DNA of 51,356 nucleotides from Acidobacteriota bacterium (GTDB lineage: Bacteria; Acidobacteriota; Polarisedimenticolia; Gp22-AA2). This document shows positions 5,823 to 49,049 of this stretch, piece by piece. Made by a program: the position numbers and the translations under genes. Position 1 is the stretch's first letter; every line of letters begins with the position of its first letter. The DNA lies in assembly GCA_031394595.1 (NCBI GenBank), contig JANNTZ010000325.1:1-51356 (forward strand), read 5' to 3'. The notes below the pieces were generated by a model. It worked only from the letters and a program-made list of their open reading frames with translations, made no database searches and had not been told where the DNA came from.

Positions 5823-5829
5823 CGCCGCC

Positions 5830-6957
5830 TCAATTCACCAAGCGGCGCGTCCAGACGTTGAGCACCAGGCCAAGGCCCAGCAGCGTGCTCACCAGGCTGG
5901 AACCGCCGTAGCTCATGAGCGGCAGCGGGACCCCGGTCGTCGGCAGCAGCCCGACGACGACGCCGATGTTGAGGATGGCCTGGCCCCCGAGCAGGCAGAC
6001 GACACCGAGGGCGAGGAACACGCCCAGCCGGTCGCGCGCCGCGCGGGCGGTGGCCAGGCACCGGTAGAGGATGACGAAATAGAGTCCGAGCAGGAGGAGC
6101 GACCCGAGAAAACCGCGCTCCTCCGCCAGCACCGCAAAAATGAAGTCGGTGTGCTGTTCGGGGAGGAACTGCAGCTGACCCTGGGTCCCGGAGAGGAACC
6201 CCTTGCCGAGGATGCCCCCCGATCCGACGGCGATGAGCGACTGGATGAGCTGGTAGCCCGCCCCCTTCGGATCGTTCGTGGGGTCGAGAAAAGTCCTGAC
6301 CCGCTCCTTCTGATAGGGCTTCAGGTGCGACCAGACCAGCGGCAGCGCCAGGATCACGATCAACCCGAGAATCACCAGGGTGCGGATGCGGATCCCTGCG
6401 ACGAAGGTCGTCCCGGCGAGGAGCGGCGCGAAGGTCACGGCGGTCCCGAGATCCGGCTGCTTCATGATCAGCAGCACCGGGAGGCCGACGATCCCGGCGA
6501 GCGCGGCGAAGTTGAATGCTCCCAGGCCGCGCACTCTCTCGCGCCCCAGGTAGGCGGCCAGCAGCATCACGGTGGCCATCTTGGCCATCTCGGACGGCTG
6601 GAATTGGAGCCCGCCGATCCCGATCCACGATTGACTGGCGTTCACGGTCCGCCCGACGATCAAGGTGAGGACCAGAAGGACCGCGGACAGGACGTAAAAC
6701 ACCGGGGCGAACGCGGCGAGCGTGTGGTAGTCGATGATCAAGGCGAGGAGCATGAGCGCCAGACCCACGCCCAGCCACATCAGCTGCCGGCGGAAGGCCC
6801 CGGCCACGGGCGTGCCGACAGTGGAGGAGTAAATGACGAGCAACCCCACCCCCGCCACGGCGAGGACGGCCGAGAACAGGATCCAGTCGAAGCTACCGAG
6901 ATAACGTCGCGCTTGCAACCCGGGCCTCCGGCGGCCGCCGATCGGGGCTGCCGCCAT
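5830..6957 (-). CDS. rodA: Rod shape-determining protein RodA (SEDS glycosyltransferase)
   Basis: Multi-TM protein with QPSEMAK, KQPDLGTA, LPEQHTDFIFAVLAEE, TGVPLPLMSYGGSS. Start chosen at ATG 6957. Confidence 0.95.
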   Translation of the reverse strand: MAAAPIGGRRRPGLQARRYLGSFDWILFSAVLAVAGVGLLVIYSSTVGTPVAGAFRRQLMWLGVGLALMLLALIIDYHTLAAFAPVFYVLSAVLLVLTLIVGRTVNASQSWIGIGGLQFQPSEMAKMATVMLLAAYLGRERVRGLGAFNFAALAGIVGLPVLLIMKQPDLGTAVTFAPLLAGTTFVAGIRIRTLVILGLIVILALPLVWSHLKPYQKERVRTFLDPTNDPKGAGYQLIQSLIAVGSGGILGKGFLSGTQGQLQFLPEQHTDFIFAVLAEERGFLGSLLLLGLYFVILYRCLATARAARDRLGVFLALGVVCLLGGQAILNIGVVVGLLPTTGVPLPLMSYGGSSLVSTLLGLGLVLNVWTRRLVN

Positions 6958-16035: not shown

Positions 16036-19000
16036 TCAGATGGGGGTGGTCGGCGAGGTGGCCGACCCGCCGGCCGTGGACGAAACCGCCACGCTTGCAG
16101 GGTTCGGGATCCCCGACACCACCAGCCGATATATCCCGGACGCCTCGACATAGCTCATCGTTCCAAACCCGACCACCGTGAGGGTCACCGACCCGGGCGG
16201 GTAGTTCGTCGTTGCCTCGACCGTCAGACGGCCATTCGTCGACTGCCAGGTGGCGCGGGTGATCGCCACGACCTCGACCACGTTGTCGATGATGTTGTCA
16301 CAGTTGTCGTCGACGCCGTTGAATACTTCCGTCGCCCCGGGGCGCACCGCCGCGACCGTGTCGTTGCAGTCGCCGCCGCACGACGTGAACCCATCGCCAT
16401 CCTGGTCGAAACCCTCGTCCCGCAGCCCGTCGCAGTCGTTGTCCAGGCCATCGCACAACTCCGGCGCACCCGGGCGGACCGACGCCCGGGTATCGTCACA
16501 GTCGGTGTCGGCCATGACCCCGTCTCCGTCCAGGTCCTGGCAGACGTCACCGATGCCGTTGGCGTCCAGATCGCGCTGGTCCGGGTTCACCAGCACGAGA
16601 CAGTTGTCGCAGGCATCGCCGCGGCCGTCACGGTCGACGTCCTGCTGGAGACCGTTGATCGACAGCGGGCAGTTGTCGACCAGGTCGAGGACCTGATCCA
16701 GGTCGGTGTCCCGCCCCTGGGGATTGCAGGGCTGGGGGATCGGGCGGACGCTCCCTGAGGTGCCGGCCCCGACGGTCCCTTCGCCACACAGGTTGGTCCC
16801 CGCAGGCATGTAGTAGAAAATCGTCCCCGGCGCCGGTGTCTGCGTGTCCTCGAACGCGGCGGTGGTCGTCTCCGGCAGCAGGCAGAGTGTGTCGAACGCC
16901 CAGGGCCGGGTGACCAGCACGACACCGCGATAAATGTTGTACACGTTGGCCTGGGGCACGGGATCCCATGCGACCCGCGTCCTGCCGGCTGCGTGCGTCA
17001 ATCTTTCGCCAACCACCTCGACGGGGCGGGTGCTCATCGAGTACAGGGCGGGGGCGCAGTCGAGCGCGTCGGGCACTCCGTCGTTGTCGTCGTCCGGATC
17101 GATGCAATCGGACAGCCCGTCACCATCGGTGTCCGGGAACCCCTCATCGACGGACAGATCGCAGTCATCATCCATGCCATTGCAGACCTCGACGCGACCC
17201 GGGTAAACCAGCGGTTCGGCGTCGTTGCAGTCGCCGGCGCACGTCGTCCAGGTGTCACCATCAAGGTCGAAGCCGTCATCGACCAGGAGATCGCAGTCAT
17301 CATCGAGGCCGTTGCAGGCCTCCGCCCGGCCCGGATAGATCAGCGGGTTGGCGTCGTTGCAGTCGCCGCCGCATGGGGTGTGCCCGTCTCCGTCGGCATC
17401 GAAGCCTTCATCCACCGCGGCATCGCAATCGTCATCGATGTTGTTGCAGATTTCGATCACCCCGGGATGGATCCCGGCATTGACGTCGTTACAGTCGCCG
17501 CCGCAGGTCGTGTAGCCATCGGCATCCCGATCGAACCCCTCGTCCACGGCGAGATCGCAGTCGTCGTCGAGCCCGTTGCAGATCTCGGTCGCTCCCGGAT
17601 GAACCGCCGGATTGGCGTCATCGCAGTCGGTGCCCGACGGGTAACCGTCCAGGTCGGCATCGGTCCCCGCATCGGTGGACGACACCCTCAGGTCGTAGGA
17701 CCCATAGATGCCCAGACCGAGGGCGTGCGTGGCGCGCACATACAGGGAGCCGCTCTGGGTCGCGGTATACAGGATGAGCGACGAGAGGTCGGTGGCGCTG
17801 CGGTCGTCGTTGCTCGCGATCACGGTCGTCCCGTTGGCGGCCAACAGGTCCAGGATCGTGTCGGACGCGCCGACGAGATTCAGCGTCTCGATCGTGTACG
17901 ACCCGCCGGCAACCGCATCGAAGACGAACAGGTCGGTGTCGGGCTCCCCGAGAAGATCGTTATTGCCGTCGGCAAAAAATGTCGCATGACGGAGCGCCGG
18001 GCCGACGCCGATCCGGGCGGCGGACGCCACCTGGCCGTTGGGCTCGAACGCGTCCAGGAAATACTCCGCTCCGAGTTCCCGGAAGACCGAGACCATCTCG
18101 GGATGCCGCCGGTTCGGGTTCGGAATGGCGGGGCTGAACCAGCCGTCCCAGAAGTCCTCCAGGCTGATGTACGCCGCCGCCGGGGTCGGCAGGTAGTCGG
18201 TCATGACACGCCAGTAGTCGCGATCGAGATCCTGGAGGAGGTCCCACGCCTCGTCCACCCCATCCGGTCCTCCGCCCGGCCCGTCGTCGGGGGATGCGGG
18301 GCCATCGACGAGATCCCAGAGGGCCGCCAGGACCGTCATCTCACTGGTGGCGCCGCGGCAGACGAATGGCTGCTGCGTCTCGGTGTTGAACGAGAACTGC
18401 AGGTTTCCGGCGCCCGCCAGCCCTGTGGTCCGCACGTACCAGGCACTCCAGGGCAGACCATGATACCGGCGCGCGGAGTTGCCCCAGTACGACGCATGTC
18501 CCTCATCGAACGCCAGCGACATGTTCTGGTTGCAGTCGCTCAGGCGGTGGGTCCCGTAGGGGCTGTTGGTCTTGGAAAAATTCTCGATGATGTAGTGCCC
18601 CATCTCGTGCAGGACCACCGTGTCGTCATAGCCCGCGTTGCGCGCCTGGACGATGGTGTTGTTGCTGTAACTGGACAGGTTGGAGTTGGCGGCATTGAAG
18701 ATCACCAGCAGCGTCGGCGCCGACGCCGGGCCGCCGCGCAGAAAATCGAAGTATTGCGCGCCGTACATGACGGAGTCATACAGATTGAACGCCTCGCCGC
18801 CCACGTTGGGGACCGCGGCCAGCGTCCCGATGTAGAGATCCTGCGTGGAGATGTGGTTGGTGAAGGTCTGCGAGCGGATCGACCAGACATCGCCCGACTG
18901 GTTGCCGGCCCGGACCTCGATTGGCACACCTGAACCCTGCTGCCGCCGCGCCAGACAGCGGACGTAGATGTCCTGGGTCCGATCGGCCACCACGCTCAGG

Positions 19001-19227
19001 ATGAAAAATCCATTGGTGTCGGTGACCCCGGCGCCAATGATCTTCGCGCCGGCGAGAACCTGCACATCGGCCTGGCGGACCGGGGTCGGCACCTCGGTCC
19101 CGAGGAAGCCGTTGGGACCGAAGGGCCGGTCGATGTAGACGAACCGCCCGGTCACGGTGTAGTTGGCCCACACCGGCAGGACCGCGCCGGCCAGCCACAC
19201 GACCGCGAGCGCCATCAGACGCTTCAT
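16036..19227 (-). CDS. Large secreted protein: gluzincin-type zinc metalloprotease domain + PPC domain + Asp/Cys-rich Ca/metal-binding repeats + Fn3-like + TSP3-like repeats
   Basis: Signal peptide MKRLMALAVVWLAGAVLPVWA. VVLHEMGH followed by AFDEGHA. PPC-like DTDLFVF..SYTIET..DTILDL...SNDD. Six DxDxDG..DCxD...PG..E.CNG.DD.CD repeats. DNCP/DACDNC TSP3-like motifs. Confidence 0.8.
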   Translation of the reverse strand: MKRLMALAVVWLAGAVLPVWANYTVTGRFVYIDRPFGPNGFLGTEVPTPVRQADVQVLAGAKIIGAGVTDTNGFFILSVVADRTQDIYVRCLARRQQGSGVPIEVRAGNQSGDVWSIRSQTFTNHISTQDLYIGTLAAVPNVGGEAFNLYDSVMYGAQYFDFLRGGPASAPTLLVIFNAANSNLSSYSNNTIVQARNAGYDDTVVLHEMGHYIIENFSKTNSPYGTHRLSDCNQNMSLAFDEGHASYWGNSARRYHGLPWSAWYVRTTGLAGAGNLQFSFNTETQQPFVCRGATSEMTVLAALWDLVDGPASPDDGPGGGPDGVDEAWDLLQDLDRDYWRVMTDYLPTPAAAYISLEDFWDGWFSPAIPNPNRRHPEMVSVFRELGAEYFLDAFEPNGQVASAARIGVGPALRHATFFADGNNDLLGEPDTDLFVFDAVAGGSYTIETLNLVGASDTILDLLAANGTTVIASNDDRSATDLSSLILYTATQSGSLYVRATHALGLGIYGSYDLRVSSTDAGTDADLDGYPSGTDCDDANPAVHPGATEICNGLDDDCDLAVDEGFDRDADGYTTCGGDCNDVNAGIHPGVIEICNNIDDDCDAAVDEGFDADGDGHTPCGGDCNDANPLIYPGRAEACNGLDDDCDLLVDDGFDLDGDTWTTCAGDCNDAEPLVYPGRVEVCNGMDDDCDLSVDEGFPDTDGDGLSDCIDPDDDNDGVPDALDCAPALYSMSTRPVEVVGERLTHAAGRTRVAWDPVPQANVYNIYRGVVLVTRPWAFDTLCLLPETTTAAFEDTQTPAPGTIFYYMPAGTNLCGEGTVGAGTSGSVRPIPQPCNPQGRDTDLDQVLDLVDNCPLSINGLQQDVDRDGRGDACDNCLVLVNPDQRDLDANGIGDVCQDLDGDGVMADTDCDDTRASVRPGAPELCDGLDNDCDGLRDEGFDQDGDGFTSCGGDCNDTVAAVRPGATEVFNGVDDNCDNIIDNVVEVVAITRATWQSTNGRLTVEATTNYPPGSVTLTVVGFGTMSYVEASGIYRLVVSGIPNPASVAVSSTAGGSATSPTTPI
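16282..16536 (-). repeat. Two further MopE-like repeats near the C-terminus
   Basis: DLDGDG..DCDD..RPGAPELCDGLDNDCD..DEGF and DQDGDGF..DCND..RPGATEVFNGVDDNCD. Confidence 0.8.
17137..17661 (-). repeat. Four tandem ~44-codon MopE-like (putative metal-binding motif) repeats inside the large secreted protein
   Basis: DADLDGY..DCDD..HPGATEICNGLDDDCD..DEGF and three similar units. Confidence 0.85.
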
Positions 19228-19763
19228 CGCGGGCCGTCCTCGATCGGCACCGCCATGACTTCCCAGGCCCCGACGTGGTGCCTTCCCTCCGCCATGCCGC
19301 CGGCGCGCAGCAGGGTCGCCTGGCGCGTCTGGATGATGTCCCCGTCGCCGATCCGGTAGGTCGCCTCCACCTGCACGGCGTGGGTTCCCGTCTGGCGGGC
19401 GTAGAGCATCGTCCCCCACTGTCGGCGCGCGCCGCCCGGCAGGGCGAAGGGCCGGACCGGCAGTGGGTCATCGGAGGTCTGCACACCCTCGGGGAGGACC
19501 AGCTTGAGGGTCACATCCCGCACTTCGGGGCCGGCGTCGATCTCGATCGTCAGGCGCGCCGCGACCCCGCTGTTCCGGACGCGCGAGGGTATCGTCTCAA
19601 GGCGAAGATCGATGCCGAGGGGTGGCATCGGCTCGACAGTGGCACGACCGGAGGGTCCGGCGGGTTGGTCAGCGGCCGGACGGAGCCCAGCGACGGGGGC
19701 AGGCTGGATGACAGCCCCCACCAGCAAGATGCCCAAGATCGCGAGCCGTGGTGCCATGTGCAT
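19224..19763 (-). CDS. Exported hypothetical protein translationally coupled to the metalloprotease gene
   Basis: Signal-peptide-like N-terminus and a beta-rich body. Its TGA overlaps the downstream ATG (ATGA at 19227-19224). Confidence 0.75.
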   Translation of the reverse strand: MHMAPRLAILGILLVGAVIQPAPVAGLRPAADQPAGPSGRATVEPMPPLGIDLRLETIPSRVRNSGVAARLTIEIDAGPEVRDVTLKLVLPEGVQTSDDPLPVRPFALPGGARRQWGTMLYARQTGTHAVQVEATYRIGDGDIIQTRQATLLRAGGMAEGRHHVGAWEVMAVPIEDGPR

Positions 19764-36604: not shown

Positions 36605-37786
36605 CTAGAGGCTCGCCTCGACCCCGATCGGCGGGGCCTGGCCGACCGTCGGCCGGCCGTCCCGCGGTTCGATCCGGGCCGGCGTGCTGGTGATGGGGTT
36701 GTAGAGCGAGTCGCGCTCAACCGGGACACGGCCGGCCTCGCGAATGAGGCCCACCAGGCGGTCCCGGGCGATCTCTTGCGGCGACGTGGATCCGGCGCGG
36801 TGGTAGATCTCCTCGGTGATCACCGTGCCGTCCAGGTCGTCGGCGCCGAAGTGCAGCGCGGTCTGCGCCACGCGTGGCGTCATCATGATCCAGTAGGCCT
36901 TGACGTGCGGGAAATTATCGAGCATCAGGCGGCCGACGGCGACCATTCGCAGCTCCTCGGCAGCGGTCGGACGGGGAATGTGCGACAGGCGGGTATTTTC
37001 GGGATGGAACGCGAGCGGGATGAAGGCCATGAATCCACCAGTCTGATCCTGCGCCTCGCGCAGCAGCAGCATGTGATCGATCCGCTCCTCGATCGACTCG
37101 ACGTGCCCGAACATCATGGTGGCGTTGCTCCGCAGACCGAGACGGTGGGCGGTTGTGGCGATGCCAATCCAGGCGCGGTGGTCAATCTTCCCCTTGAACA
37201 GCACCTGGTGGGCGTGGTCGGTCAGGATCTCCGCGCCGCCGCCGGGAATCGAACCGAGCCCCGCCTCCTTCAGGCCCAGCAGGACCGCTTCGATGGTCAT
37301 CCCAAAGTTCTCGGCCATGGCGGCAATTTCGACCATGGTGAACGCCTTGACGTGGACATCCGGACGGACCCGCTTCATGGTCCGGATGACGTCGGTGTAG
37401 TACGAGAACGGCAGCTCGGGGTTGATGCCGCCCACCATGTGAATCTCGCGGATCGGATCGTCGATGTGCTCGCGCATCCGGCGCTCCACGTCAGCGGACG
37501 AGAGCACGTAGGCATCGGGCTGCTTCGCGGTGCGGTAGAAGGCGCAGAACTTGCAGCCCGCCACGCAGACGTTGGTGTGGTTGATGTGCTGGTTGACGAT
37601 AAACCAGGTCGTGTCGCCGTGGCGGGCCTCGCGCACATGGTTGGCGAGGGCCCCGAGTGCGAGCAGATCCTGATGACGGACCAGGCGCAGTCCGTCGGCG
37701 CGATCGAGGCGTTCTCCCGCCAGGATTTTTGCGCCGATGTCGGTCAGGCCAGCCGCCTCGATCTGCCGTTTCTGCAGTGCGTTCAC
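36605..37786 (-). CDS. mqnE: Aminofutalosine synthase-type radical SAM protein (MqnE/MqnC/CofH family)
   Basis: HINHTNVCVAGCKFCAF (CxxxCxxC), HMVGG, HVKAFT..EI, PGGGAEI, SNATMMFGH.E, HVKAYW. GTG 37786 follows GGAGGT. Confidence 0.85.
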   Translation of the reverse strand: MNALQKRQIEAAGLTDIGAKILAGERLDRADGLRLVRHQDLLALGALANHVREARHGDTTWFIVNQHINHTNVCVAGCKFCAFYRTAKQPDAYVLSSADVERRMREHIDDPIREIHMVGGINPELPFSYYTDVIRTMKRVRPDVHVKAFTMVEIAAMAENFGMTIEAVLLGLKEAGLGSIPGGGAEILTDHAHQVLFKGKIDHRAWIGIATTAHRLGLRSNATMMFGHVESIEERIDHMLLLREAQDQTGGFMAFIPLAFHPENTRLSHIPRPTAAEELRMVAVGRLMLDNFPHVKAYWIMMTPRVAQTALHFGADDLDGTVITEEIYHRAGSTSPQEIARDRLVGLIREAGRVPVERDSLYNPITSTPARIEPRDGRPTVGQAPPIGVEASL

Positions 37787-37817
37787 GCCCACCTCCCTGG
37801 GACCCTGCCCGCCGCAA

Positions 37818-39179
37818 TCAATGCTGCAGTTCCCGTCCCTTGCGATATTCCGGCGATCCAACCCGGACGTGGTGATGCGTCGCGCGATCCTCGGGCGCGC
37901 CCAGGACCTCGCCGACCTTCTGACGCGTGTTCTCGAGGGCCATCGAACAGAGCGTTCCGCACATCGTGCAGACCGCCTTGTCGTAGTCCTCGCTGAGCAT
38001 GCGGATCGATCGCGCTTTTTCGGGGTCGAGCGCCAGACGGTACTGCCCTTCCCAGTCGAGCGCCTTCCGGTACACCGACATCTGGTTGTCCCGCTCCCGG
38101 GCGCCGAAGACTCCCTTCGCCAGGTCGCCGGAATGGGCCGCGATCTTGGTGGCAATGACGCCATCGCGGACGTCCTCGACGGTCGGCAGCCGCAGATGCT
38201 CGGCCGGTGTCAGGTAACAGAGGACATCGGCCCCCGCCGCCGACGCCAGCGCCCCGCCGATCGCCCCGGTGATGTGATCGTAGCCGGCCCCGATGTCGCT
38301 GGTCAGCGGTCCGAGGACGTAGAACGGCGCCCCGTTGCAGATGCGCTTTTCGAGCCGCACGTTGGCTTCGATCTGGTCGATCGGCACGTGGCCCGGACCT
38401 TCGATCATCACCTGCACCGATCGTTCATGGGCCCGCCGGGTCAGCTCGCCAAGGGTCAGCAGCTCCTGGATCTGGGCGGCGTCGGTGGCGTCGGCGGTGG
38501 CGCCCGGCCGGATGCCGTCTCCGAGCGACAGCGTCACGTCGTACTCGTAGGCGATGTCCAGCAGCCGATCGAAGCCGGTGTAGAGGGGATTCTCCTCGCC
38601 GGTGCGCGCGATCCAGGAGGCCAGCATCGACCCGCCGCGCGACACGATGCCGGCGATTCGGCCGGAGCCATCCAGCCGCCGCACGGCCTCCCGCGTGACG
38701 CCGCAGTGAACGGTCATGAAGTCCACCCCGTCGTGCGCCTGCTTCTCGATCGTGCCGAACAGGTCGTCCGCCGTCAGGGCGAATACCGATCCCCGGTCTG
38801 CCACCGCCTGGTAAATCGGCACGGTCCCGAGGATGACGGAACAGCGGGCGAGGATCGCCCGTCGCACGTCGTCGAGGGCGTCTCCGGTAGACAGGTCCAT
38901 GACCATCTCGGACCCGCACTGGATGGCGACCCGCAGCTTTTCCAACTCCTCGTGCAGTTGCTGGTGGTGGCCCGAGGTACCGATGTTGGCGTTGACTTTC
39001 GTGGACAGCCCCTGCCCGACGCCGATCGGGTTGAAGTCGTGGCGGACGTTCATCGGAATGATCGCCACGCCGGCGGCGATCCGCCGCCGCAGCTCCTCGG
39101 GTTCAGTCCCCTCGACGGCTGCCACGTAGCGCATGGCCTCGGTGATCCTGCTTCGCTTCGCGTGTTCCATCTGCGTCAT
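37818..39179 (-). CDS. thiC: Phosphomethylpyrimidine synthase ThiC (ThiC/Bza family)
   Basis: KVNANIGTS, MDLSTG, VSRGGS, SLGDGIRPG, QVMIEGPGH, FYVLGPL..DI..GYDH, TPAEHL, C-terminal CTMCGTLC. Confidence 0.85.
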   Translation of the reverse strand: MTQMEHAKRSRITEAMRYVAAVEGTEPEELRRRIAAGVAIIPMNVRHDFNPIGVGQGLSTKVNANIGTSGHHQQLHEELEKLRVAIQCGSEMVMDLSTGDALDDVRRAILARCSVILGTVPIYQAVADRGSVFALTADDLFGTIEKQAHDGVDFMTVHCGVTREAVRRLDGSGRIAGIVSRGGSMLASWIARTGEENPLYTGFDRLLDIAYEYDVTLSLGDGIRPGATADATDAAQIQELLTLGELTRRAHERSVQVMIEGPGHVPIDQIEANVRLEKRICNGAPFYVLGPLTSDIGAGYDHITGAIGGALASAAGADVLCYLTPAEHLRLPTVEDVRDGVIATKIAAHSGDLAKGVFGARERDNQMSVYRKALDWEGQYRLALDPEKARSIRMLSEDYDKAVCTMCGTLCSMALENTRQKVGEVLGAPEDRATHHHVRVGSPEYRKGRELQH

Positions 39180-41729: not shown

Positions 41730-41972
41730 CTAGCCGCCGCTGACCGGCGGGAAAACGGCGACCTCGTCGCCGGGCTGCACCACTGTCTCCGGCCGGGCGT
41801 ACGCCCGGTTGCAGGCCAGGAGTGGTCGCGCCTCCCCGCGCAGCGCTGGCACCTGTTGCCGCACGGCGTCCCACACCGCCCGCAGGGTTGCAGGGTCGGC
41901 CACCTCGATCTCGAGGATCGGCGCACCCGCCGCCTCACGGTAGCGCGCGAACAGCAGGACCGACACCCTCAC
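41730..41972 (-). CDS. moaD: Molybdopterin synthase sulfur carrier
   Basis: GTG 41972: VSVLLFARYREAAG...GDEVAVFPPVSGG with the C-terminal GG. Confidence 0.93.
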   Translation of the reverse strand: MRVSVLLFARYREAAGAPILEIEVADPATLRAVWDAVRQQVPALRGEARPLLACNRAYARPETVVQPGDEVAVFPPVSGG

Positions 41973-42619
41973 CGGCGTGCCCCTTCCGGGCCCCGGACGG
42001 CGGCGGCCCGGTCGGCCATCATCGCCAGCACCTGCCGGACCAGGGCCCGGATTCCCGCCTGCACGTCGCGCAGCCGCACCCAAGCGCTGAAACCCGGGGT
42101 ATGGACGACGGCGTGGTCGCGATCCACGCGGACCTGTTCCGGGTCGAGTGGCGACGGCTGCATCACGATCTCCTGGCCAAGAACGGTCCGTACCGGGATC
42201 TCACCAAGACTGATGCAGCCGATCGGCTTGCGCTGCTCGAGAAAGTGCCGCAGGAACATCTCGACCTCCGGAAGGATGGCGCGCTTCTCCCCGGCCTTCG
42301 CGAACCCCGTCGAGAAATTGACGACCGGGCCGTAGCCGCCGGGAATGATCAACGCCTCGAGATGGTCCGCCCGCACTTCGTCGAGCGCCTGGATGCGACC
42401 ACGCCAGAGGCGCGCCGATTCGCGCAGGACGTCCCGCTCCTCCCCTTCGACCGCGTCCCCCGTCAGGTGGTTGACGGTGCGGTCCTGCAGTCGGCGCGGC
42501 GCAATCAGGACCGGCTTCTCGCCTTCTTCCTCGAGCGCCAGCAGCGTCAGGACCGCTTCGCAGACGTCCGTCCCGTCGTAGTGCCCGCAGCCCCCCAGCA
42601 GAAGCCCGATGCGCATCAT
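41969..42619 (-). CDS. elbB: ElbB-like DJ-1/PfpI (class I glutamine amidotransferase-like) protein, nucleophile position Ser
   Basis: LGGCGHYDGTDVCEAVLTLLAL, ESARL.RG.I, LIIPGGYG...NFS, KPIGCISLG. Confidence 0.8.
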   Translation of the reverse strand: MMRIGLLLGGCGHYDGTDVCEAVLTLLALEEEGEKPVLIAPRRLQDRTVNHLTGDAVEGEERDVLRESARLWRGRIQALDEVRADHLEALIIPGGYGPVVNFSTGFAKAGEKRAILPEVEMFLRHFLEQRKPIGCISLGEIPVRTVLGQEIVMQPSPLDPEQVRVDRDHAVVHTPGFSAWVRLRDVQAGIRALVRQVLAMMADRAAAVRGPEGARR

Positions 42620-42685
42620 GCCTCTCCCGTGATGGCGGCGATTATAGGGCCGCGTCCCGTGCGGGAGGAAGCGTCGAGAAATCTG

Positions 42686-42715
42686 TTGACCGCCCCGCGC
42701 GGCGCGTGGTAACTT
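42686..42715 (+). promoter_or_regulatory. sigma70 promoter for the IclR-corrinoid operon
   Basis: TTGACC, 18 bp spacer, TGgTAACTT, about 300 bp upstream of the IclR ATG. Confidence 0.5.
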
Positions 42716-43023
42716 TAGTGCGCATTGTGCTATTGAATTTCACAGTACGGTATTTAAGGGATCGCGATCGATGAAACGGGCGCAGCGGATTCATATGCTC
42801 CACCGGCATACCTGCGGCGGTCGCAACGACGGGCAACCCGGCGATGCTGTTACGGCCTCAAGCCATCGCCGTTCGCTGCAAACCTTTGCCGTTACGTCAT
42901 TACCGGCAAGAAAAGAGTTGCGCCACGGGGGGGTGTCGGCGGAGAATTCCGGCGCTTGAGGTTCGTTCGTAACTATGCGAGGACGGCATTAAGTTTCACA
43001 GGAAGGAAGCGAGGGGTTGCAAC

Positions 43024-43896
43024 ATGGCTCAGGAAGTGGAGACACAGGGGACGAGGAAGCGCAGTGAACGGGGCGAAGGGATCGTCACCGGCAACCAGGC
43101 GGTTCGCCGGGCGATCGCCGTCCTCAAGGCATTCAGCGACGACGCGCCGGAGATGGGGGTCACCGAGGTCAGCCGCAAGGTGAATCTCCACAAGAGCACC
43201 GTCTACCGCCTGCTGTCGGCCTTCGAAGGCGAGGGACTGATCGCCAAGAGCCCGGAGACCGGCAAATACCGGCTCGGGCCCGAGCTGATTGTCCTCGGCG
43301 AGCAGGTACTGCGCCACACCGACGTGCATCGCGTCGCCCTCCCCTTCCTGCGTGACCTGGCCGAGCGCACCGGCGAGACCATCGACCTCGAAGTCCTGAG
43401 CGGCGGCAACGTCGTCACCATCGAGGAAATCGCCGGCAAGCACGTCGTCGCCGCGGCCGGAGCGATCGGCATGCCGTGGGCCGCGCACGCGACCTCGACC
43501 GGCAAGATCCTGCTGGCCTTCCAGCCGCCCGAGAAGCAGCGGCAGATTCTGGCCCGCACCCTGAAGAAGTTCACGCCGCGCACCATCACCGATCCGAAGG
43601 CGCTGGCGCGCGACCTGCTGAAAACCCGCGAGCAGGGCTACTCCGTCTCCTACGGGGAGCTCGAAGACCATCTGATCGCCATCGGCCTGCCCATCCGAAG
43701 CCGCAACGGCGACGCCATTGCCGCCGTCAGCATCTCCGGCCCGGACACCAGACTGACGCCCGACAAGCTGCCGGCCCTGATCCGGACCGGCATGGACATC
43801 TGTGCCAGAATCTCCGCCCGGCTGGGGTACCACGGCCCGGCGAGCCTGAGGATGTCTCCGGCGAAGTTCGCGCCGCCGCCCCGCGCCATGGCCTGA
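43024..43896 (+). CDS. IclR family transcriptional regulator
   Basis: RRAIAVL.AF....EMGVTEVSRKVNLHKSTVYRLL, YRLGP, HATSTGKILLA, TR..GYSVS.GE, IGLPI, AAVSISGP. Confidence 0.95.
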   Translation: MAQEVETQGTRKRSERGEGIVTGNQAVRRAIAVLKAFSDDAPEMGVTEVSRKVNLHKSTVYRLLSAFEGEGLIAKSPETGKYRLGPELIVLGEQVLRHTDVHRVALPFLRDLAERTGETIDLEVLSGGNVVTIEEIAGKHVVAAAGAIGMPWAAHATSTGKILLAFQPPEKQRQILARTLKKFTPRTITDPKALARDLLKTREQGYSVSYGELEDHLIAIGLPIRSRNGDAIAAVSISGPDTRLTPDKLPALIRTGMDICARISARLGYHGPASLRMSPAKFAPPPRAMA

Positions 43897-43956
43897 CGGC
43901 CACGACCGGACTCGAACGCGACCGCCCGGACCTGACTTCGACAAAAAGGAGGCCCT

Positions 43957-44712
43957 TTGAGCCACGCCGAACTGTTCCAGACCATGGCCGACAGCATCAT
44001 CGTCGGTGACGCGGAAACCTCCGCGCGCCTTGCCCGCCAGTCCCTCGAACTCGCGATCCCGCCCCTGGACTCGATCGACGAGGGCTTTGTGAAGGGGATC
44101 CGGATCGTCGGCGACCGGTTCGGCGCCGGCGAGCTGTTCCTCCCGGAGCTGGTGATGAGCGCCGAGGCGATGAAGGCGGCCCTCGCCATCCTCGAGCCCG
44201 AGCTGGCAAAGACCGCCACGGCCCGTGAGACCGCCGGGAGCGTGCTGGCCTGCACCGTCCAGGGGGACATCCACGACATCGGCAAGCGCATCGTCTGCAC
44301 CATGCTGTCGGCGAATGGCTTCGTCGTCGTCGATCTCGGCGTCAATGTGAAGATCGACCGGTTCGTCCAGGAGATCAAGACACGCAAGCCGGACATCGTC
44401 GCCATGTCGGCGCTGCTCACCACCACGGCTCCCAACCAGGGGAAGGTGATCAAGGCGCTCGTCAAGGAAGGAATCCGCCAGAACTATGTGGTCATGGTGG
44501 GCGGGGCTCCGACCAGCCTGCAGTGGTCGAAGGACATCGGCGCCGATGGCTATGGGGAGAACGCCACCGAGGCGGTGCGGGTCGCCAAGGAACTGATGAC
44601 GGCCCACCGCGCCCGGAAGGCCGAGGCCGCATCGCAGCCGGCCCAGGCTACGGCGCAGCCGACCGTCCTGCCATCGGTTCCCGCGGGCGGTCAGGCCGCC
44701 GTCGGGACTTAG
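43957..44712 (+). CDS. Corrinoid (B12)-binding protein, MtbC/MttC/MetH cap + B12 type
   Basis: GELFLPELVMSAEAMK, TVQGDIHDIGK (DxHxxG), SALLTTT, MVGGAP, GADGY. TTG start follows AAGGAGG. Confidence 0.93.
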   Translation: MSHAELFQTMADSIIVGDAETSARLARQSLELAIPPLDSIDEGFVKGIRIVGDRFGAGELFLPELVMSAEAMKAALAILEPELAKTATARETAGSVLACTVQGDIHDIGKRIVCTMLSANGFVVVDLGVNVKIDRFVQEIKTRKPDIVAMSALLTTTAPNQGKVIKALVKEGIRQNYVVMVGGAPTSLQWSKDIGADGYGENATEAVRVAKELMTAHRARKAEAASQPAQATAQPTVLPSVPAGGQAAVGT

Positions 44713-44745
44713 AAGACCGGGCCAGGTCCCGGTCCGGAGATTCCC

Positions 44746-45153
44746 GTGGCTATCCACATCCCCTCCCGCGTCGTGCGCTTCTTCAAGGAGCGTCCGCGGC
44801 TGACCCGTGCGCTCGATCGGACGATCGCGCCCTTCGAGGCGGTGAGCAAAAAGCTCGCCTTTGGCTGCAGGATGTGCGGCCAGTGCATCCTGCACGAAAC
44901 CGGTCTCACCTGCCCGATGGGCTGCCCCAAGACGCTGCGCAACGGGCCGTGCGGCGGGGTACGGATGAACGGCCACTGCGAAGTGGTGCCCGACATGATG
45001 TGCGTCTGGGTCAAGGCCGAGCGGCGGTCACGCCTGCTCCCCTGGCGCGGAACGCTCCTCAAGATTCAGCCGGCCCTCGACTGGAGTCTCAAGGGGAGTT
45101 CCTCCTGGGTGAACCTGCTGGCCGGTGTGCACGACAAGGGGGCGGATCGATGA
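44746..45153 (+). CDS. MetV-like Cys-rich partner of MTHFR (MTHFR C-terminal domain protein)
   Basis: FGCRMCGQCIL..TGLTCPMGCPK.LRNGPCGG....HCEV..MCVW. Confidence 0.88.
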   Translation: MAIHIPSRVVRFFKERPRLTRALDRTIAPFEAVSKKLAFGCRMCGQCILHETGLTCPMGCPKTLRNGPCGGVRMNGHCEVVPDMMCVWVKAERRSRLLPWRGTLLKIQPALDWSLKGSSSWVNLLAGVHDKGADR

Positions 45154-46196
45154 ACGACAGCGTGCCGGAAAGCATGGGGCCCGCGGACGCCCGGCCACGC
45201 GGCGCGTTCGAGAGGGCGCTGGCCTCCGGCCGGCCGGTCGTGACCTGCGAGATCTCCACCGGCGACGGCGCCGACCCCGAGGTGGTGCGCCGGCGCGGGC
45301 GCCTGGTGCGCGACCACGTGGACGCCGTCAATGTTCCCGACAATACCGCCGGCATCCCGCACATGTCCGGCGTGGCGGCCGCCGCGATCCTGGCGCAGGA
45401 CGGGATTGAGCCAATCCTTCACGTGACCTGCCGCGACCGCAACCGGCTCGCCCTGCAAAGCGATCTGCTGGGCGCGGCAGCGCTCGGCGTACGCAACGTC
45501 CTCTGTCTGACCGGAGACCACATGGTCCATGGCGATCACCCGGACGCCAAGCCGGTTTTCGACATCGACTCCATGCAGTTGGTCCGGCTGGCGCGCCGCC
45601 TGACGGACGAGGGACGCTACCTGAGCGGGCGCGAGATCAAATCGCGCCCCGCGCTGTTCGTCGGCGCCGTCGAGAACCCGTTTGCGCCGCCGTATGACTT
45701 CCGTCCGACCCGTCTGCTGAAGAAGCAGGAGGCCGGCGCCCAGTTTATCCAGACCCAGATCATCTTCAACGTCGACCGCTTCGCCGCGTTCATGACGCGG
45801 GTCCGCGATCTCGGGATCGACCGCCGCCTGCCGATCCTGGCCGGCGTCGCCCCGCTCCGCTCGGCGCGCACCGCCCGCCACATGCGCGACAATGTTCCCG
45901 GCATGGAGGTCCCGGAGGACCTGGTACGCCGGATGGACCAGGCGGGCGATGACCGCGCCCGGCGCGAAGAGGAAGGCATCCGGATCTGTGTCGAAATCAT
46001 CGAACGCCTGCGTGCGATCCCGGGGATCGCGGGGTTTCACGTCATGCCGATTCACTGGGAGGAGGCGGTGGGCGAGATCGTCCGGCGCGCCGGGCTGGTC
46101 CCCGCGCGCACCGCACAGCGCCCCGACGTCGACACCCAGCGGCTGATCCCGGCCACGGCGGCCCCCTCCTCTGCTTCCAAGGAGCACCGTTCATGA
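45150..46196 (+). CDS. metF: Methylenetetrahydrofolate reductase
   Basis: VTCEI, DAVNVPDN, HVTCRDRNRLALQSDLLGA, LCLTGDH, AQFIQTQ. ATG 45150 overlaps the metV stop (ATGA). Confidence 0.92.
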   Translation: MNDSVPESMGPADARPRGAFERALASGRPVVTCEISTGDGADPEVVRRRGRLVRDHVDAVNVPDNTAGIPHMSGVAAAAILAQDGIEPILHVTCRDRNRLALQSDLLGAAALGVRNVLCLTGDHMVHGDHPDAKPVFDIDSMQLVRLARRLTDEGRYLSGREIKSRPALFVGAVENPFAPPYDFRPTRLLKKQEAGAQFIQTQIIFNVDRFAAFMTRVRDLGIDRRLPILAGVAPLRSARTARHMRDNVPGMEVPEDLVRRMDQAGDDRARREEEGIRICVEIIERLRAIPGIAGFHVMPIHWEEAVGEIVRRAGLVPARTAQRPDVDTQRLIPATAAPSSASKEHRS

Positions 46197-47122
46197 AAAC
46201 CGTCCTGTCGTCCGCCACCAAGACCGTCATCATCGGCCCCGACGAGCCGTTCGTGATCATCGGCGAGCGGATCAACCCGACCAACCGCAAGAAACTGGCT
46301 GAAGAGCTGAAGCGCTTCGATTTCTCGCGCGTCCGGGCCGAAGCGGTGGCCCAGGTGGAGGCCGGGGCCCAGGTCCTCGACGTCAACACCGGGATCCCCG
46401 GAGCCGACGAACCCGGGATGCTCAAGGGGGCGGTCCAGGCGATGATGGAGGTCACCGACGCTCCGATCTCGATCGACTCCTCCACGCCCGAGGCGCTGGA
46501 GGCGGCCCTGCCGATCTACCGCGGCAAGGCGCTGGTCAACTCGGTGACCGGGGAGGATGAGAGCCTGGAGCGGCTCCTGCCGCTGATCAAGAAATACGGG
46601 GCGGCGGTGATCGGGATCGCCAATGACGACACCGGCATCAGCAACGAACCGGAGGTGCGCCTCGCGGTGGCCCGCAAGATCGTCCAGCGCGCGGCCGACC
46701 ACGGCATCCCGAAGGAGGACGTCCTCATCGATCCGCTCTGCATGCCGATCGGCGCCAATCACAACTTCGGCCGGATCACCTTCGAAACGATGCGGCTGAT
46801 CCGCCAGGAGCTCGGTGTCAACATGTCGATCGGAGCCGGCAACGTCGGGTTCGGTCTGCCGGACCGGCCGCCGCTCACCTCCGCTTTCATGCTGCTGGCG
46901 ATGCCGGTCGGCCTGACCGCCGCGATCACCAACGCCCTCGAACCCGAGATCTACCGTTCCATCCTGGCAGGCGACCTGATGATGGGCCGCGACCCGTTCG
47001 GCAAACGGTGGAACCGGAATTTCCGGAAGGTGAACGCCGCCAGGGCCGCCGCACTGGGGGCCGCTGCCCCCGCCTCTCCAAGCGCCACTCCGACTGCCCC
47101 CTCCACCGCCTCCGGTCGCTGA
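46193..47122 (+). CDS. Methyltetrahydrofolate:corrinoid methyltransferase (pterin-binding domain, AcsE/MetH-type)
   Basis: IIGERINPTNRK, GAQVLDVN, ISIDSS, LVNSVTGE, IDPL, G.GNVGFGLP. ATGA overlap with metF. Confidence 0.9.
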   Translation: MKTVLSSATKTVIIGPDEPFVIIGERINPTNRKKLAEELKRFDFSRVRAEAVAQVEAGAQVLDVNTGIPGADEPGMLKGAVQAMMEVTDAPISIDSSTPEALEAALPIYRGKALVNSVTGEDESLERLLPLIKKYGAAVIGIANDDTGISNEPEVRLAVARKIVQRAADHGIPKEDVLIDPLCMPIGANHNFGRITFETMRLIRQELGVNMSIGAGNVGFGLPDRPPLTSAFMLLAMPVGLTAAITNALEPEIYRSILAGDLMMGRDPFGKRWNRNFRKVNAARAAALGAAAPASPSATPTAPSTASGR

Positions 47123-47140
47123 GGATAGGAGCCCGATCCC

Positions 47141-49012
47141 GTGGACAACACGCCGGGCCGGGGCGAAAAGCACAAGGTCATCTTCCGTCCCAAGGGCGTG
47201 GAAACACGCGTTCCGTCCGGCACAACGATCTTCCACGCCGCTGCCTGGACCGGCCAGCCGGTCGAGTCGACCTGCGGCGGCCGCGGCACCTGCGGCAAAT
47301 GCCGCGTCCGGGTTGTCGAAGGCGAAGCGCCGGTCACGCCGGCCGACACCGAGCACATACCCGGCGCCGATCTCGATACCGGCTGGCGTCTTTCCTGCCA
47401 GGCCCCGGTGCGCGGTCCGATGACGGTGGAGGTGCCGCGGCTCCTGAGCCCGCCCAAAACGGCCATGTTCGGTGTCGGCCGGCAGGTGATCCTCGACCCC
47501 AATGTCCACAAGATCCATCTGAAACTCATCCCGCCCGAACTGCACGACCAGAGATCCGACATCCGGCGCCTGCGCGAGGCACTGCACGCCGCCGGCTTCG
47601 CTGTCCAGGCTGACCTCGACGTCCTGCGCGCGCTGCCCAAGGCGCTTCGCGACGCCGACTTCGACGTAACCGTCGTCCTGTGCGGCGATCACCTGGTCAC
47701 CCTCGAACCGGGGGACACGACACGCGACTGCCACGGCGCCGCCTTTGACCTGGGGACGACGACGATCGTCGGGACGATGCTGAACCTGAACGGCGGGGAG
47801 GCCCGTGGTGTCACGTCCAACCTCAACGCCCAGGCGGTGCACGGTGGCGACGTCCTGTCCCGTATTTCCCACACCATGGGGCATCCCGACGGTCTCGCCG
47901 AGCTGCAACGTCTGGCGGCGGGCACCATCAACGGCCTGATCGATCGCCTGTCCCGCGAGTCGGGTGTCCCGCGCGATCGGATCTACGAGATCACCATCGC
48001 CGGAAACCTGACCATGATTCACCTGCTGCTCGGCATCGACCCCGAGCCGATCTCGGTCACTCCCTTCGCCCCGTGCGTGAGCAGCGGGCTCGACCTGCGG
48101 GCCCGCGACCTCGGTCTCCAGATTCATCCGGAGGGACGCGTCTATCTCTTCCCGGCGATCGGGGCCTATGTCGGTGGCGACATCGTGGCGGGTCTGCTGG
48201 CGACGGCGCTGCCGCGCGGCGACCGCCTGCGCCTGTTCGTGGACGTCGGCACCAACGGCGAGATCGCTCTCGGTTCGGAAGCCCGCACCATCAGCACCGC
48301 CGCGCCGGCCGGCCCCGCGTTCGAGGGCGCCGAGATCTCATGCGGCATGCGGGCGACGGCCGGCGCCATCGAGGGGGTGCAGATCGGCGATTCCGACGTC
48401 ACCCTGCAGACCATCGGCGACGCGCGCCCGGTCGGTCTCTGCGGTTCGGGACTGATCGACGCGGTGGCCGAGCTCTACCGCCGCGGTCTGATGGACCGGA
48501 CCGGACGACTCAAGTCGGCCGAAGAGCTTGGCGCCGGCTGGCCGGCCGCGCTGATGGCGCGGCTCGTGACCCTCAACGGCGTCCGCGCCTTTATCCTCGC
48601 CACTGCCGAACAGACCGGCGCCAGCCCGGTCCTGCTCACCCAGAAGGACATCCGGCAGCTGCAGTTCGCCAAGGGATCGATCGCTGCCGGGATCCGGATC
48701 CTGATGAACGAGCTGGGGGTGAAGCCGGCCGACCTGCACGAAATCCTGCTGGCGGGGGCCTTCGGTTCCTATATCCATCCGGAAGCGGCGCGGCGGATCG
48801 GCCTGGTCCCGCCTGTGCCGGTCGACCGGATCCGCGCCATCGGGAACGCCGCCGGCGAAGGAGCCAAGATCGCCCTGCTCTCCTACCGTGAGCGCGAGGC
48901 GGCCGACGCCATGCCCACCCGTGTCGAGTACATCGAACTCTCCGGTCGCGAGGACTTCAACGACATCTTCCTGTCGGTCCTGGGGTTCCCTGCGCTCGAA
49001 GATCTGCGCTGA
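47141..49012 (+). CDS. ASKHA-domain reductive activator of corrinoid proteins (RACo/RamA-like) with an N-terminal 2Fe-2S domain
   Basis: CGGRGTCGKC...RLSCQ, FDLGTTT, GGDVLSRI, DVGTNGEI, AGPAFEG, GLCGSG, LAGAFG, GNAAGEGA. Confidence 0.92.
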   Translation: MDNTPGRGEKHKVIFRPKGVETRVPSGTTIFHAAAWTGQPVESTCGGRGTCGKCRVRVVEGEAPVTPADTEHIPGADLDTGWRLSCQAPVRGPMTVEVPRLLSPPKTAMFGVGRQVILDPNVHKIHLKLIPPELHDQRSDIRRLREALHAAGFAVQADLDVLRALPKALRDADFDVTVVLCGDHLVTLEPGDTTRDCHGAAFDLGTTTIVGTMLNLNGGEARGVTSNLNAQAVHGGDVLSRISHTMGHPDGLAELQRLAAGTINGLIDRLSRESGVPRDRIYEITIAGNLTMIHLLLGIDPEPISVTPFAPCVSSGLDLRARDLGLQIHPEGRVYLFPAIGAYVGGDIVAGLLATALPRGDRLRLFVDVGTNGEIALGSEARTISTAAPAGPAFEGAEISCGMRATAGAIEGVQIGDSDVTLQTIGDARPVGLCGSGLIDAVAELYRRGLMDRTGRLKSAEELGAGWPAALMARLVTLNGVRAFILATAEQTGASPVLLTQKDIRQLQFAKGSIAAGIRILMNELGVKPADLHEILLAGAFGSYIHPEAARRIGLVPPVPVDRIRAIGNAAGEGAKIALLSYREREAADAMPTRVEYIELSGREDFNDIFLSVLGFPALEDLR

Positions 49013-49049
49013 GTCGACCGGATCCCGGCGCCTGTTTCTCCTGATCCTG

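Follow-up and report, generated by a model that had tools for sequence, protein, structure and literature searches.

Six plus-strand genes between positions 43024 and 49012 of the window, the 51,356-nucleotide stretch of DNA analysed here, form an operon whose products are probably the central parts of a split cobalamin-dependent methionine synthase, alongside enzymes that make its methyl donor and repair its cofactor, the homocysteine module being supplied in trans. An earlier note on this DNA had preferred an inducible funnel from CH3-X to cobalt, THF and methylene-THF, and had itself named a split methionine synthase as the alternative that would refute this; a split methionine synthase with MetVF is the reading that we judge best. 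The six genes are all where that note had placed them, its operon structure holds, and the two ATGA overlaps it claimed are both real.

The first gene (43024..43896) encodes an IclR-family transcription factor (PF09339 and PF01614, 8e-43) and lies on the same strand as the corrinoid protein gene, 60 bp upstream of it. The corrinoid protein gene (43957..44712) has a TTG start preceded by an aaaaggagg ribosome-binding site, and its product is a stand-alone B12-binding protein of the MetH-Cob/MtgC/MttC type (PF02607 and PF02310). The translation carries GDIHDIG, a His-on DxHxxG motif, as well as SALL and VGG, and has an Ala/Pro-rich, non-conserved C-terminal tail; the NCBIfam scores were about 205 bits for both TIGR02370 and MtgC and 159 bits for the MetH Cob region, and 7xcn, 3ezx and 1bmt were matched in the PDB. 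MetV (44746..45153; PF12225/DUF5981, 4e-26), the Cys-rich small subunit of a methylene-THF reductase with eight Cys residues in its translation, is followed by the catalytic subunit MetF (45150..46196; PF02219, 1e-41), for which the best NCBIfam match was the MTHFR half of YitJ at 226 bits. The stop of metV and the start of metF overlap as ATGA at 45150-45153, and this PF02219 MetF with an adjoining Cys-rich PF12225 MetV identifies the enzyme as a MetVF-type reductase. The second ATGA, at 46193-46196, joins metF to the gene of MT2 (46193..47122), a stand-alone methyl-THF:corrinoid methyltransferase with a pterin-binding TIM barrel (PF00809), which is the counterpart of the MetH folate module, MtgD or MeTr, scores 295 bits against PRK07535 (cut-off 259) and matches 2yci (5e-40) and T. 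maritima MetH 1q7m (4e-36). The last gene (47141..49012) encodes a RACo/RamA-type ATP-dependent reductive activator of corrinoid proteins, an ASKHA ATPase with an N-terminal [2Fe-2S] ferredoxin domain (Fer2), a RACo linker, and middle and C-terminal domains (PF00111, PF17650, PF17651, PF14574), and aligns over its full length with 3zyy (5e-107).

In the split methionine synthase that we propose, MetVF would reduce 5,10-methylene-THF to 5-methyl-THF, MT2 would use this to methylate the Co(I) of the stand-alone corrinoid protein, and a separate zinc-dependent homocysteine S-methyltransferase (HcyMT) would use the methyl group of CH3-Co(III) to make methionine. RACo would return oxidised cobalt, Co(II), to the reduced state at the expense of ATP, its [2Fe-2S] domain supplying the electron, in place of the SAM-dependent activation domain of classical MetH. 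We infer the direction of methyl flow; a Ruegeria MetF paralogue adjoining the pterin methyltransferase works oxidatively, and gene content therefore does not fix it (PMC12478193). Compared with the classical MetH of E. coli and T. maritima and human MTR, the chemistry would be the same and the corrinoid protein and MT2 have their homologues in the Cob and Fol modules, whereas the parts in the window are not one polypeptide and repair would depend on ATP rather than on SAM and flavodoxin. A canonical MetH was rejected, its modules being on separate ORFs and its Hcy and activation modules absent from the window.

When stop-to-stop ORFs of at least 60 aa in the window were searched with HMMs, no match was found for MttB, MtmB, a PF02574-type HcyMT or the MetH activation domain, and Pfam scans of the remaining predicted proteins contained no MtaB, URO-D or ACS/CODH. 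The earlier note's statement that the window holds no MT1, homocysteine module or ACS/CODH is thus upheld, and no MT1 of the MttB, MtmB, MtaB, MtvB/OdmB or URO-D-like kinds is encoded there with the corrinoid protein, MT2 and activator. By Pfam, the other window proteins are housekeeping only, including mreBCD, PBP2, rodA, RNase G, FBPase and MutS2 as well as TrpE-like, ThiC, RNase Y and MoaD/E, and none of those scanned has PF07796, the DUF1638 partner of corrinoid proteins. The window has no PF02965 activation domain; the ferredoxin and DUF4445/ASKHA activator is present instead. This combination counts in favour of a split synthase, and split or truncated MetH without SAM-type activation has been shown genetically in Phaeobacter and Desulfovibrio (PMC5764234). 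Counting against it are the lack of a homocysteine module in the window and of a SAM or B12 riboswitch in the upstream region. The methyl branch of the Wood-Ljungdahl pathway was rejected, as the operon encodes a MetH/MtgC-type corrinoid protein and not CoFeSP and no ACS/CODH family occurs among the window proteins; the NCBIfam exception models AcsV and CODH_ACS_meth scored far below their cut-offs.

The cluster is a vertically inherited core locus of Acidobacteriota subdivision 22 (Ca. Polarisedimenticolia). Its gene order is repeated, far beyond chance, on about 50 independent contigs at 65-98% amino-acid identity, and all relatives have the same housekeeping flanks, with ThiC/RNase Y/MoaDE on one side and NrnA-like/hexapeptide genes on the other. 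The operon proteins are conserved to the same degree as the flanks, with the same GC3. What the earlier note had called an unusual capacity for this kind of organism is therefore a conserved, class-wide core module. This housekeeping behaviour counts for the split synthase, as does the lack of MT1 in the fetched parts of the class-level loci.

RACo and the convergent gene g156 are separated, stop to stop, by a 37-bp junction (49013..49049). The sister clade has an HcyMT gene of about 290 aa in this slot, and a few relatives have a gene for a DUF481 outer-membrane protein there. A PF02574 gene (2e-51) lies directly 3' of RACo in four MAG contigs (L055, L006/L081, L007, L087), and HcyMT occupies the same slot in 12 of the 36 metagenome contigs with that side visible; its start overlaps the RACo stop in L055, and in many contigs overlaps or shortly follows it. 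The in-operon HcyMT conserves the Zn-ligand Cys and the GCCG motif, and it is the only methyltransferase linked to the operon in the relatives examined. In the operon tree, the window falls in a clade lacking HcyMT at that slot, and three MAGs of this clade (DAISWT01, JBGPED01 and DATFVU01) carry a lone orthologue on a separate contig. The HcyMT tree places the class as monophyletic (100% bootstrap) and the lone genes as one nested clade (99%), with nesting beside the in-operon gene of L007 at 76.5%. The homocysteine module, with which the sister-clade operon ends, would thus have moved to another locus in the window's clade and would act in trans. The window's own genome presumably holds the lone gene as well; comparison of contigs from the source runs with a sister HcyMT gave a partial, ambiguous match at similar depth.

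The class HcyMT scored higher against MmuM-type models (106-134 bits) than against MetH-type models (65-71 bits) of NCBIfam, so it is the gene context alone that suggests its dependence on the corrinoid protein. The wider family to which it belongs consists of lone HcyMTs found in Planctomycetota, Chloroflexota and Myxococcota, and their neighbours are not conserved. Both the MmuM-like character and this wider family count against a split synthase. The former, with the JGI labels of its relatives as SMM-dependent methylases, would suit a methyl-corrinoid made from CH3-THF for another acceptor, either a folate-independent core-MetE/Mes-type synthase or another corrinoid-dependent methylation, the sister-operon PF02574 protein then being an SMM/SAM-dependent salvage enzyme there through a shared metabolic theme. 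Core methionine synthases using methyl groups of corrinoid proteins are known (PMC7857596). We regard this explanation as highly improbable, considering that no such acceptor gene was found in any locus, that the HcyMT start is so closely joined to the RACo stop in many contigs, and that a split MetH with a PF02574 module is an established precedent (PMC5764234).

That precedent is the split methionine synthase of Phaeobacter inhibens and Ruegeria pomeroyi, consisting of MtgC, MtgD, MtgE, a RamA-like protein and MetF2 (PMC5764234, Price et al. 2018; PMC12478193, Mausz et al. 2025). Published genetics of roseobacter-type loci describe a split methionine synthase that is reactivated by the RamA-like protein and whose core also serves glycine-betaine demethylation (PMC5764234, PMC12478193). 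As in the window and its relatives, the B12-, pterin- and homocysteine-binding modules are on separate proteins, a ferredoxin and DUF4445 protein (RACo/RamA) replaces the SAM-type activation domain, the MetF gene adjoins that of the pterin methyltransferase, and the parts can be scattered in the genome. In contrast with the aerobic marine Alphaproteobacteria, the window comes from Acidobacteriota of anoxic or suboxic sediment, its core parts are all in one tight operon with iclR at the head, it has no DUF1638 partner or known MttB partner, and the class HcyMT is of another PF02574 subfamily than the BHMT-like MtgE, nearer MmuM and YitJ. Desulfovibrio has a MetH without activation domain and a RamA-like protein (PMC5764234), and two of the loci that we collected (L080 and L223) encode a fused HcyMT-pterin-B12 protein of about 800 aa without activation domain. 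Both loci also carry a RACo gene, which follows directly in L080, where MetF directly precedes, and lies several kb upstream in L223. These systems have all four catalytic functions and RACo-type reactivation in common with the one proposed here, and this recurrence of the functional set counts for the split synthase; the Hcy, pterin and B12 modules are fused there and are three proteins, one of them unlinked, here.

The roseobacter MtgBCDE system suggests a further reading, which we consider unlikely, namely that the corrinoid protein, MT2, MetVF and RACo serve methionine synthesis and also run in reverse, from CH3-X via MT1 to Co, THF and methylene-THF. MT1, of the MttB family or another type, would be encoded elsewhere, and IclR would induce the core on methylated substrates. 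Mutation of mtgC or mtgD deprives Ruegeria pomeroyi of methionine prototrophy and also of growth on glycine betaine; the protein with the strongest induction is that of metF2, which adjoins mtgD, and MtgB is encoded at unlinked sites (PMC12478193). Marine loci such as L244 and its relatives (CoP-DUF1638-...-MetV-MetF-MT2-RACo, where CoP is the corrinoid protein) contain the same MetV-MetF-MT2-RACo block; they match the MtgC/MtgD/MetF2/RamA system, their proteins are 34-54% identical to those of the window, and they count for the split synthase as well. Among the nearest corrinoid-protein homologues outside the class, MttB and HcyMT genes are neighbours with about equal frequency, and CoP-HcyMT-activation domain-MttB clusters are frequent; these MttB neighbours also count against the split synthase. 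A dedicated regulator suggests inducible use, and in L035 a CoP-MttB-MttB cluster has an IclR homologue (40% identity) in front of it. However, neither MttB nor MtmB was found in the window or the fetched part of any of the roughly 50 class-level loci, and none of the ten operon-bearing MAGs, which are incomplete, yielded an MttB of the acidobacterial subfamily in a search able to find close relatives only. In favour of this reading, MttB is encoded in a few other Polarisedimenticolia and Acidobacteriota MAGs with neither MT2 nor RACo nearby; against it, this MttB is accompanied by a corrinoid protein of its own that shares only 41-43% identity with that of the window. The core may also have a catabolic role. 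There is likewise a small chance that the IclR-controlled core is a bidirectional methyl hub in which, in the window's clade, relocation of HcyMT uncoupled methionine synthesis from inducible catabolism; unlinked MT1 enzymes would then feed methyl groups of betaines, methylamines or methoxy-aromatics via cobalt to THF, and an abundant uncultured sediment class would join the groups with corrinoid-dependent catabolism of methyl groups.

A purely catabolic core of an IclR-induced O-/N-demethylase, with no role in methionine synthesis and with the substrate-choosing methyltransferase elsewhere, was the interpretation of the earlier note and appears very unlikely. IclR regulators often control catabolic operons. 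The corrinoid protein, MT2 and RACo resemble parts of acetogen-type demethylases (4o0q, 4jgi/1y80, 3zyy), the matches to the Carboxydothermus enzymes being 5e-107 for RACo and 5e-40 for MT2 with MeTr, and MetVF is an acetogen-type MTHFR (PMC8760232). Unlike the acetogen-type systems (O-demethylases, MtgBCA and other MttB systems, MeTr/CoFeSP/RACo), neither the window nor the loci of its relatives, in their fetched parts, contain MT1, CoFeSP or ACS/CODH, and the sole operon-linked methyltransferase of the relatives binds homocysteine. The conserved core placement also differs from the patchy spread of a catabolic island. The observation of the earlier note is confirmed and its interpretation partly supported: it was right about a shared core working with methyltransferases encoded elsewhere, for which Ruegeria MtgC/MtgD are a published precedent (PMC12478193), and the catabolic funnel is not supported, given that only HcyMT is linked in relatives. 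It had held that a lone Hcy-methyltransferase module and no demethylase MT1 gene in the genome would indicate a split methionine synthase; the lone HcyMT is found in three MAGs of the clade, and the second part is only weakly tested because the MttB and MtmB searches were limited.

The split methionine synthase would explain the probable methionine route of a widespread uncultured sediment class, a B12-dependent route with a MetVF-type reductase as in anaerobic acetogens and ATP-driven cofactor repair, features that bear on MAG-based predictions of B12 dependence and auxotrophy. Automated annotation is expected to name a dimethylamine/glycine-betaine corrinoid protein, an acetyl-CoA-pathway methyltransferase and an SMM-dependent methylase, so pipelines could err twice, by finding no methionine synthase and by falsely signalling a demethylase or the Wood-Ljungdahl pathway. 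Some operons keep the homocysteine module and others lack it, a natural contrast for asking how split MetH parts meet.

The IclR-type regulator probably controls the operon, judging solely from conserved adjacency, as iclR has the same position in all class-level loci that extend far enough. IclR proteins are not known as methionine regulators, which also counts against the split synthase, and this one is below the cut-off of every NCBIfam equivalog, with PcaR/PcaU and BhcR as the best matches at about 162 bits. The divergent promoter region between iclR and g216 on the minus strand (42620..43023) has no sigma-70 consensus match. An alignment of seven orthologous upstream regions revealed the conserved footprints GCGCATTGTGC, ATGCTGTTACGGC and TTGYCGTWACGTCAT in this region.

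Six genes occupy positions 43024-49012 on the plus strand, with a high third-position GC that matches the remainder of the window. The IclR-family regulator (43024-43896) and a stand-alone corrinoid protein (CoP, 43957-44712) with B12-binding cap and Rossmann domains were both assigned by Pfam and NCBIfam. These are followed by MetV (44746-45153, PF12225), MetF (45150-46196, PF02219), the pterin-binding methyl-THF:corrinoid methyltransferase MT2 (46193-47122), which scored above the PRK07535 cut-off, and a RACo-type corrinoid activator (47141-49012) that bears a [2Fe-2S] domain at its N-terminus and aligned over its full length to the Carboxydothermus RACo structure 3zyy (5e-107). The corrinoid protein gene has a TTG start with a good ribosome-binding site 5' of it, and its product carries the DxHxxG His-on motif. 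Two ATGA start/stop overlaps are present, both genuine. No HMM match to MttB, MtmB, the PF02574 homocysteine methyltransferase (HcyMT) or the MetH activation domain was found among the window ORFs. Housekeeping genes fill the rest of the window (mreBCD, PBP2, rodA, RNase G, FBPase, MutS2, a TrpE-like gene, ThiC, RNase Y, MoaD/E, an NrnA-like DHH protein and a hexapeptide transferase). Since the gene identities and overlaps are real, the HMM searches negative and the remaining genes housekeeping, the earlier description of a B12 methyl-transfer module missing its substrate-specific enzyme was confirmed in full. Classing the cluster by similarity alone was rejected, as a role in methionine synthesis cannot be told from one in demethylation or acetogenesis by how closely CoP, MT2 and RACo resemble solved structures.

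The nearest loci in the genome collection belong to MAGs labelled Candidatus Polarisedimenticolia, which is subdivision 22 or GTDB Mor1 (PMC8528874), or Acidobacteria gp22, and a few contigs under other labels are, based on synteny, from the same kind of genome. The best GTDB-representative match to the window proteins showed 86-88% amino-acid identity. The window derives from freshwater-sediment metagenomes, and IclR, CoP and MetV were found on Logan contigs of SRR20217207 and SRR20217197, which break within MT2. The full neighbourhood is syntenic on ten MAG contigs and ~40 metagenome contigs, in the order ThiC-RNase Y-MoaDE-g216, IclR-CoP-MetV-MetF-MT2-RACo and g156-DHH-hexapeptide, where g216 is divergent from iclR and g156 is convergent with RACo. 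Because identities across these loci range from 65 to 98% with the operon proteins conserved at least as well as the flanks, and composition is uniform across the window, the operon is a core locus that the class has inherited vertically. A horizontal transfer island was ruled out, as composition, GC3 and synteny of the operon all match the flanks. The suggestion that the operon is an unusual capacity for this kind of organism was thus not borne out.

In the homologous loci L055, L006/L081, L007 and L087, a gene of ~290 aa lies immediately 3' of RACo, with its start overlapping the RACo stop in L055. Its product is a PF02574 homocysteine S-methyltransferase (2e-51) that keeps the Zn-binding Cys and the GCCG motif. 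Among the metagenome contigs showing the 3' side of RACo, the HcyMT gene follows RACo in 12, RACo directly abuts the convergent g156 as in the window in 21, including L176, the nearest relative of the window (RACo 90%, MT2 97%), and a ~1-kb insert is present in 3. The RACo 3' junction appears to be a recurrent gene-turnover site. In L001, the post-RACo insert is a DUF481 outer-membrane protein gene (5331-6236) on the minus strand, opposite to the operon, and L177, L178 and L234 have a gap of equal size. The tree of concatenated operon proteins separates one clade with the HcyMT gene from one without it, and the window lies in the latter.

When the genome collection was scanned with the in-operon HcyMT, orthologous lone copies were found on other contigs of DAISWT01, JBGPED01 and DATFVU01, which are MAGs of the window's clade, and additional copies in related MAGs. 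In the HcyMT tree, all sequences of the class form a monophyletic group apart from the outgroups (100% of 200 bootstraps), and the lone copies form a single clade (99%) beside the in-operon gene of L007 (76.5%). From this topology, the simplest history would be that HcyMT left the operon once, in the ancestor of the clade to which the window belongs. The surroundings of the lone copies are variable and unrelated (a holin-like membrane protein, porins, CorA/NUDIX), and a neighbour census of the lone family (77 loci) showed no conserved partner. Many contigs of the source runs SRR20217207 and SRR20217197 partially matched a sister lone-HcyMT locus at 80% likeness. One of them, 6.2 kb in length (3.9 kb in the second run), has depths of ~9.4 and 9.2 compared with ~11 and 10 for the window, which is suggestive only of this contig carrying the HcyMT of the window's genome. 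One candidate homologue, P0050, was derived from another sample.

Split enzymes of this kind have been described. In Phaeobacter inhibens, methionine is made by a three-part split MetH, as shown genetically, with PF02574, PF00809 and PF02607/PF02310 on separate proteins; this system, in which the PF02965 domain is missing, needs a RamA-like protein (ferredoxin + DUF4445), a type which in Desulfovibrio is co-fit with MetH lacking the activation domain (Price et al., PMC5764234). In Ruegeria pomeroyi, the corrinoid protein MtgC and the pterin methyltransferase MtgD are required both for making methionine and for demethylating glycine betaine, with MtgE as the homocysteine module, the MttB-family MtgB as the betaine-specific part and a metF paralogue adjoining mtgD that oxidises the methyl-THF formed (Mausz et al., PMC12478193). 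The metagenome scan returned marine loci (L236, L244 and others) with the roseobacter-type layout CoP-DUF1638-ExoD-PurU-like-MetV-MetF-MT2-RACo, which share the MetV-MetF-MT2-RACo block with the window. Two further loci, L080 and L223, encode a fused ~800-aa HcyMT-pterin-B12 protein without an activation domain and a RACo gene, and in L080 MetF is directly upstream and RACo directly downstream of the fused protein. On this comparison, the window cluster probably belongs to the split-MetH-plus-RamA kind.

Taken together, the comparative evidence points to the CoP/MT2/RACo/MetVF operon being a split methionine synthase, because the partner that it indicates is a homocysteine methyltransferase. 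The protein identities, the operon structure and the comparative genomics were observed; we infer which way the methyl flows and the pairing with the lone HcyMT, as follows: MetVF would reduce methylene-THF to methyl-THF, MT2 would move the methyl onto Co(I) of the corrinoid protein, the unlinked HcyMT would pass it to homocysteine, and RACo would repair Co(II) at the expense of ATP. The earlier note had proposed an IclR-induced catabolic methyl funnel. That interpretation is supported in part: its idea of a shared core working with partners encoded elsewhere holds and has published precedent, and the catabolic reading gives way to the split methionine synthase, which the note itself had named as the refuting result, given HcyMT in sister operons and its lone orthologues. 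The novelty is modest and lies in a phylum new to this kind of system, the compact IclR-headed operon including MetVF, the different HcyMT subfamily and the naturally occurring operons that have or lack the homocysteine module. CoP (44602-44712) and MT2 (47045-47122) both terminate in non-conserved tails of ~25-35 residues, rich in Ala, Pro, Ser and Thr; these tails resemble inter-domain linkers and might be left over from module docking in a split enzyme or assist it.

The same core might instead be a hub serving both methionine synthesis and catabolic demethylation, or act in catabolism alone. Bit scores of the class HcyMT are higher with models of the MmuM type (106-134) and of the YitJ N-terminal part (~135) than with those of MetH (65-71), and a Zixibacteria HcyMT next to a corrinoid protein and activation domain shows the opposite order. 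Because the class HcyMT belongs to a wider lone family in Planctomycetota, Chloroflexota and Myxococcota without conserved neighbours, its corrinoid dependence is predicted from its place in the operons of the sister clade. The nearest CoP relatives outside the class are divided between MttB-linked and HcyMT-linked loci, several clusters joining CoP, HcyMT, activation-domain protein and MttB. An IclR regulator is also unexpected for a methionine operon, and in L035 an IclR homologue lies 5' of a CoP-MttB-MttB cluster. On the other side, neither MttB nor MtmB was found in the class-level loci within the fetched part (up to 6.5-10 kb flanking the matched gene in each direction). A few further MAGs of Acidobacteriota and Polarisedimenticolia have an MttB accompanied by a corrinoid protein of its own (41-43% identical to that of the window), and two genome-collection scans (single sequence and alignment) found no acidobacterial MttB in operon-bearing MAGs. 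This negative result is weak evidence, because the scans reach only close relatives of one MttB subfamily and the MAGs are incomplete. Considering these weak points in HcyMT subfamily, wider family, corrinoid relatives and regulator, we regard the dual-use hub as unlikely but worth keeping in view, and a purely catabolic role as highly improbable.

In the MttB-bearing loci of those MAGs (L067/L160, L161, L162, L163, L172), the MttB-family gene is directly 3' of its own corrinoid protein with MT2 and RACo absent within 6 kb, so that these functions would have to come from elsewhere; JBGPLZ01, one MAG of this group, also has a class-type lone HcyMT (L084). Outside the class, many clustered CoP homologues (L013, L018, L038, L042, L069, L072, also L027; L010, L011, L029, L056) show the order CoP, PF02574 HcyMT, small PF02965-like activation-domain protein and MttB-family methyltransferase, the last missing in some. 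This layout suggests that a methyl from a quaternary amine may pass via cobalt to homocysteine directly, with repair of the SAM type in place of the RACo type, and these clusters (Chloroflexota, Zixibacteria, other MAGs) resemble the roseobacter MtgB/C/E logic.

IclR is present in each locus extending that far. The iclR gene shares its strand with the corrinoid protein gene and lies 60 bp 5' of it; neither a promoter nor a terminator was detected in between, and the iclR product scores under the cut-off of all named IclR equivalogs. Rfam searches, run at gathering thresholds on the whole window and at E<=1 on 42500-44100, gave no SAM, B12 or other riboswitch, and no signal from the consensus promoter/terminator scan or the inverted-repeat search around the operon exceeded shuffled expectation. 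In 42715-43010, seven orthologous regions upstream of iclR share three conserved blocks, GCGCATTGTGC, ATGCTGTTACGGC and TTGYCGTWACGTCAT, of which the last includes the short palindrome CGTWACG; these are candidate operator or promoter elements. A local repeat in the window, AATTTCACAG / AGTTTCACAG, lacks conservation in the relatives. In X6, a freshwater-sediment run labelled RNA-Seq, contigs of a closely related strain cover 42862-44731, with an assembler depth of ~16 over iclR and the corrinoid protein gene compared with ~1-7 over the remaining operon; the run type is guessed and DNA is possibly present, and the pattern may reflect in situ transcription with 5' bias.

Elsewhere in the window, a minus-strand gene (16036-19419) encodes a 1127-aa protein that combines a PPC domain with at least 6 putative metal-binding repeats of the MopE type (PF11617, 5e-59); it is probably a large metal-binding protein that is secreted or displayed on the cell surface. 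Taken as longest ORFs, MoaD/ThiS (41730-42083) and g216 (41969-42619) overlap by >100 nt, and a CofH/MqnC-like radical-SAM gene (36605-38164) and ThiC (37818-39179) by >300 nt; the actual starts are probably further downstream. MoaD is 80 aa in the Logan gene calls.
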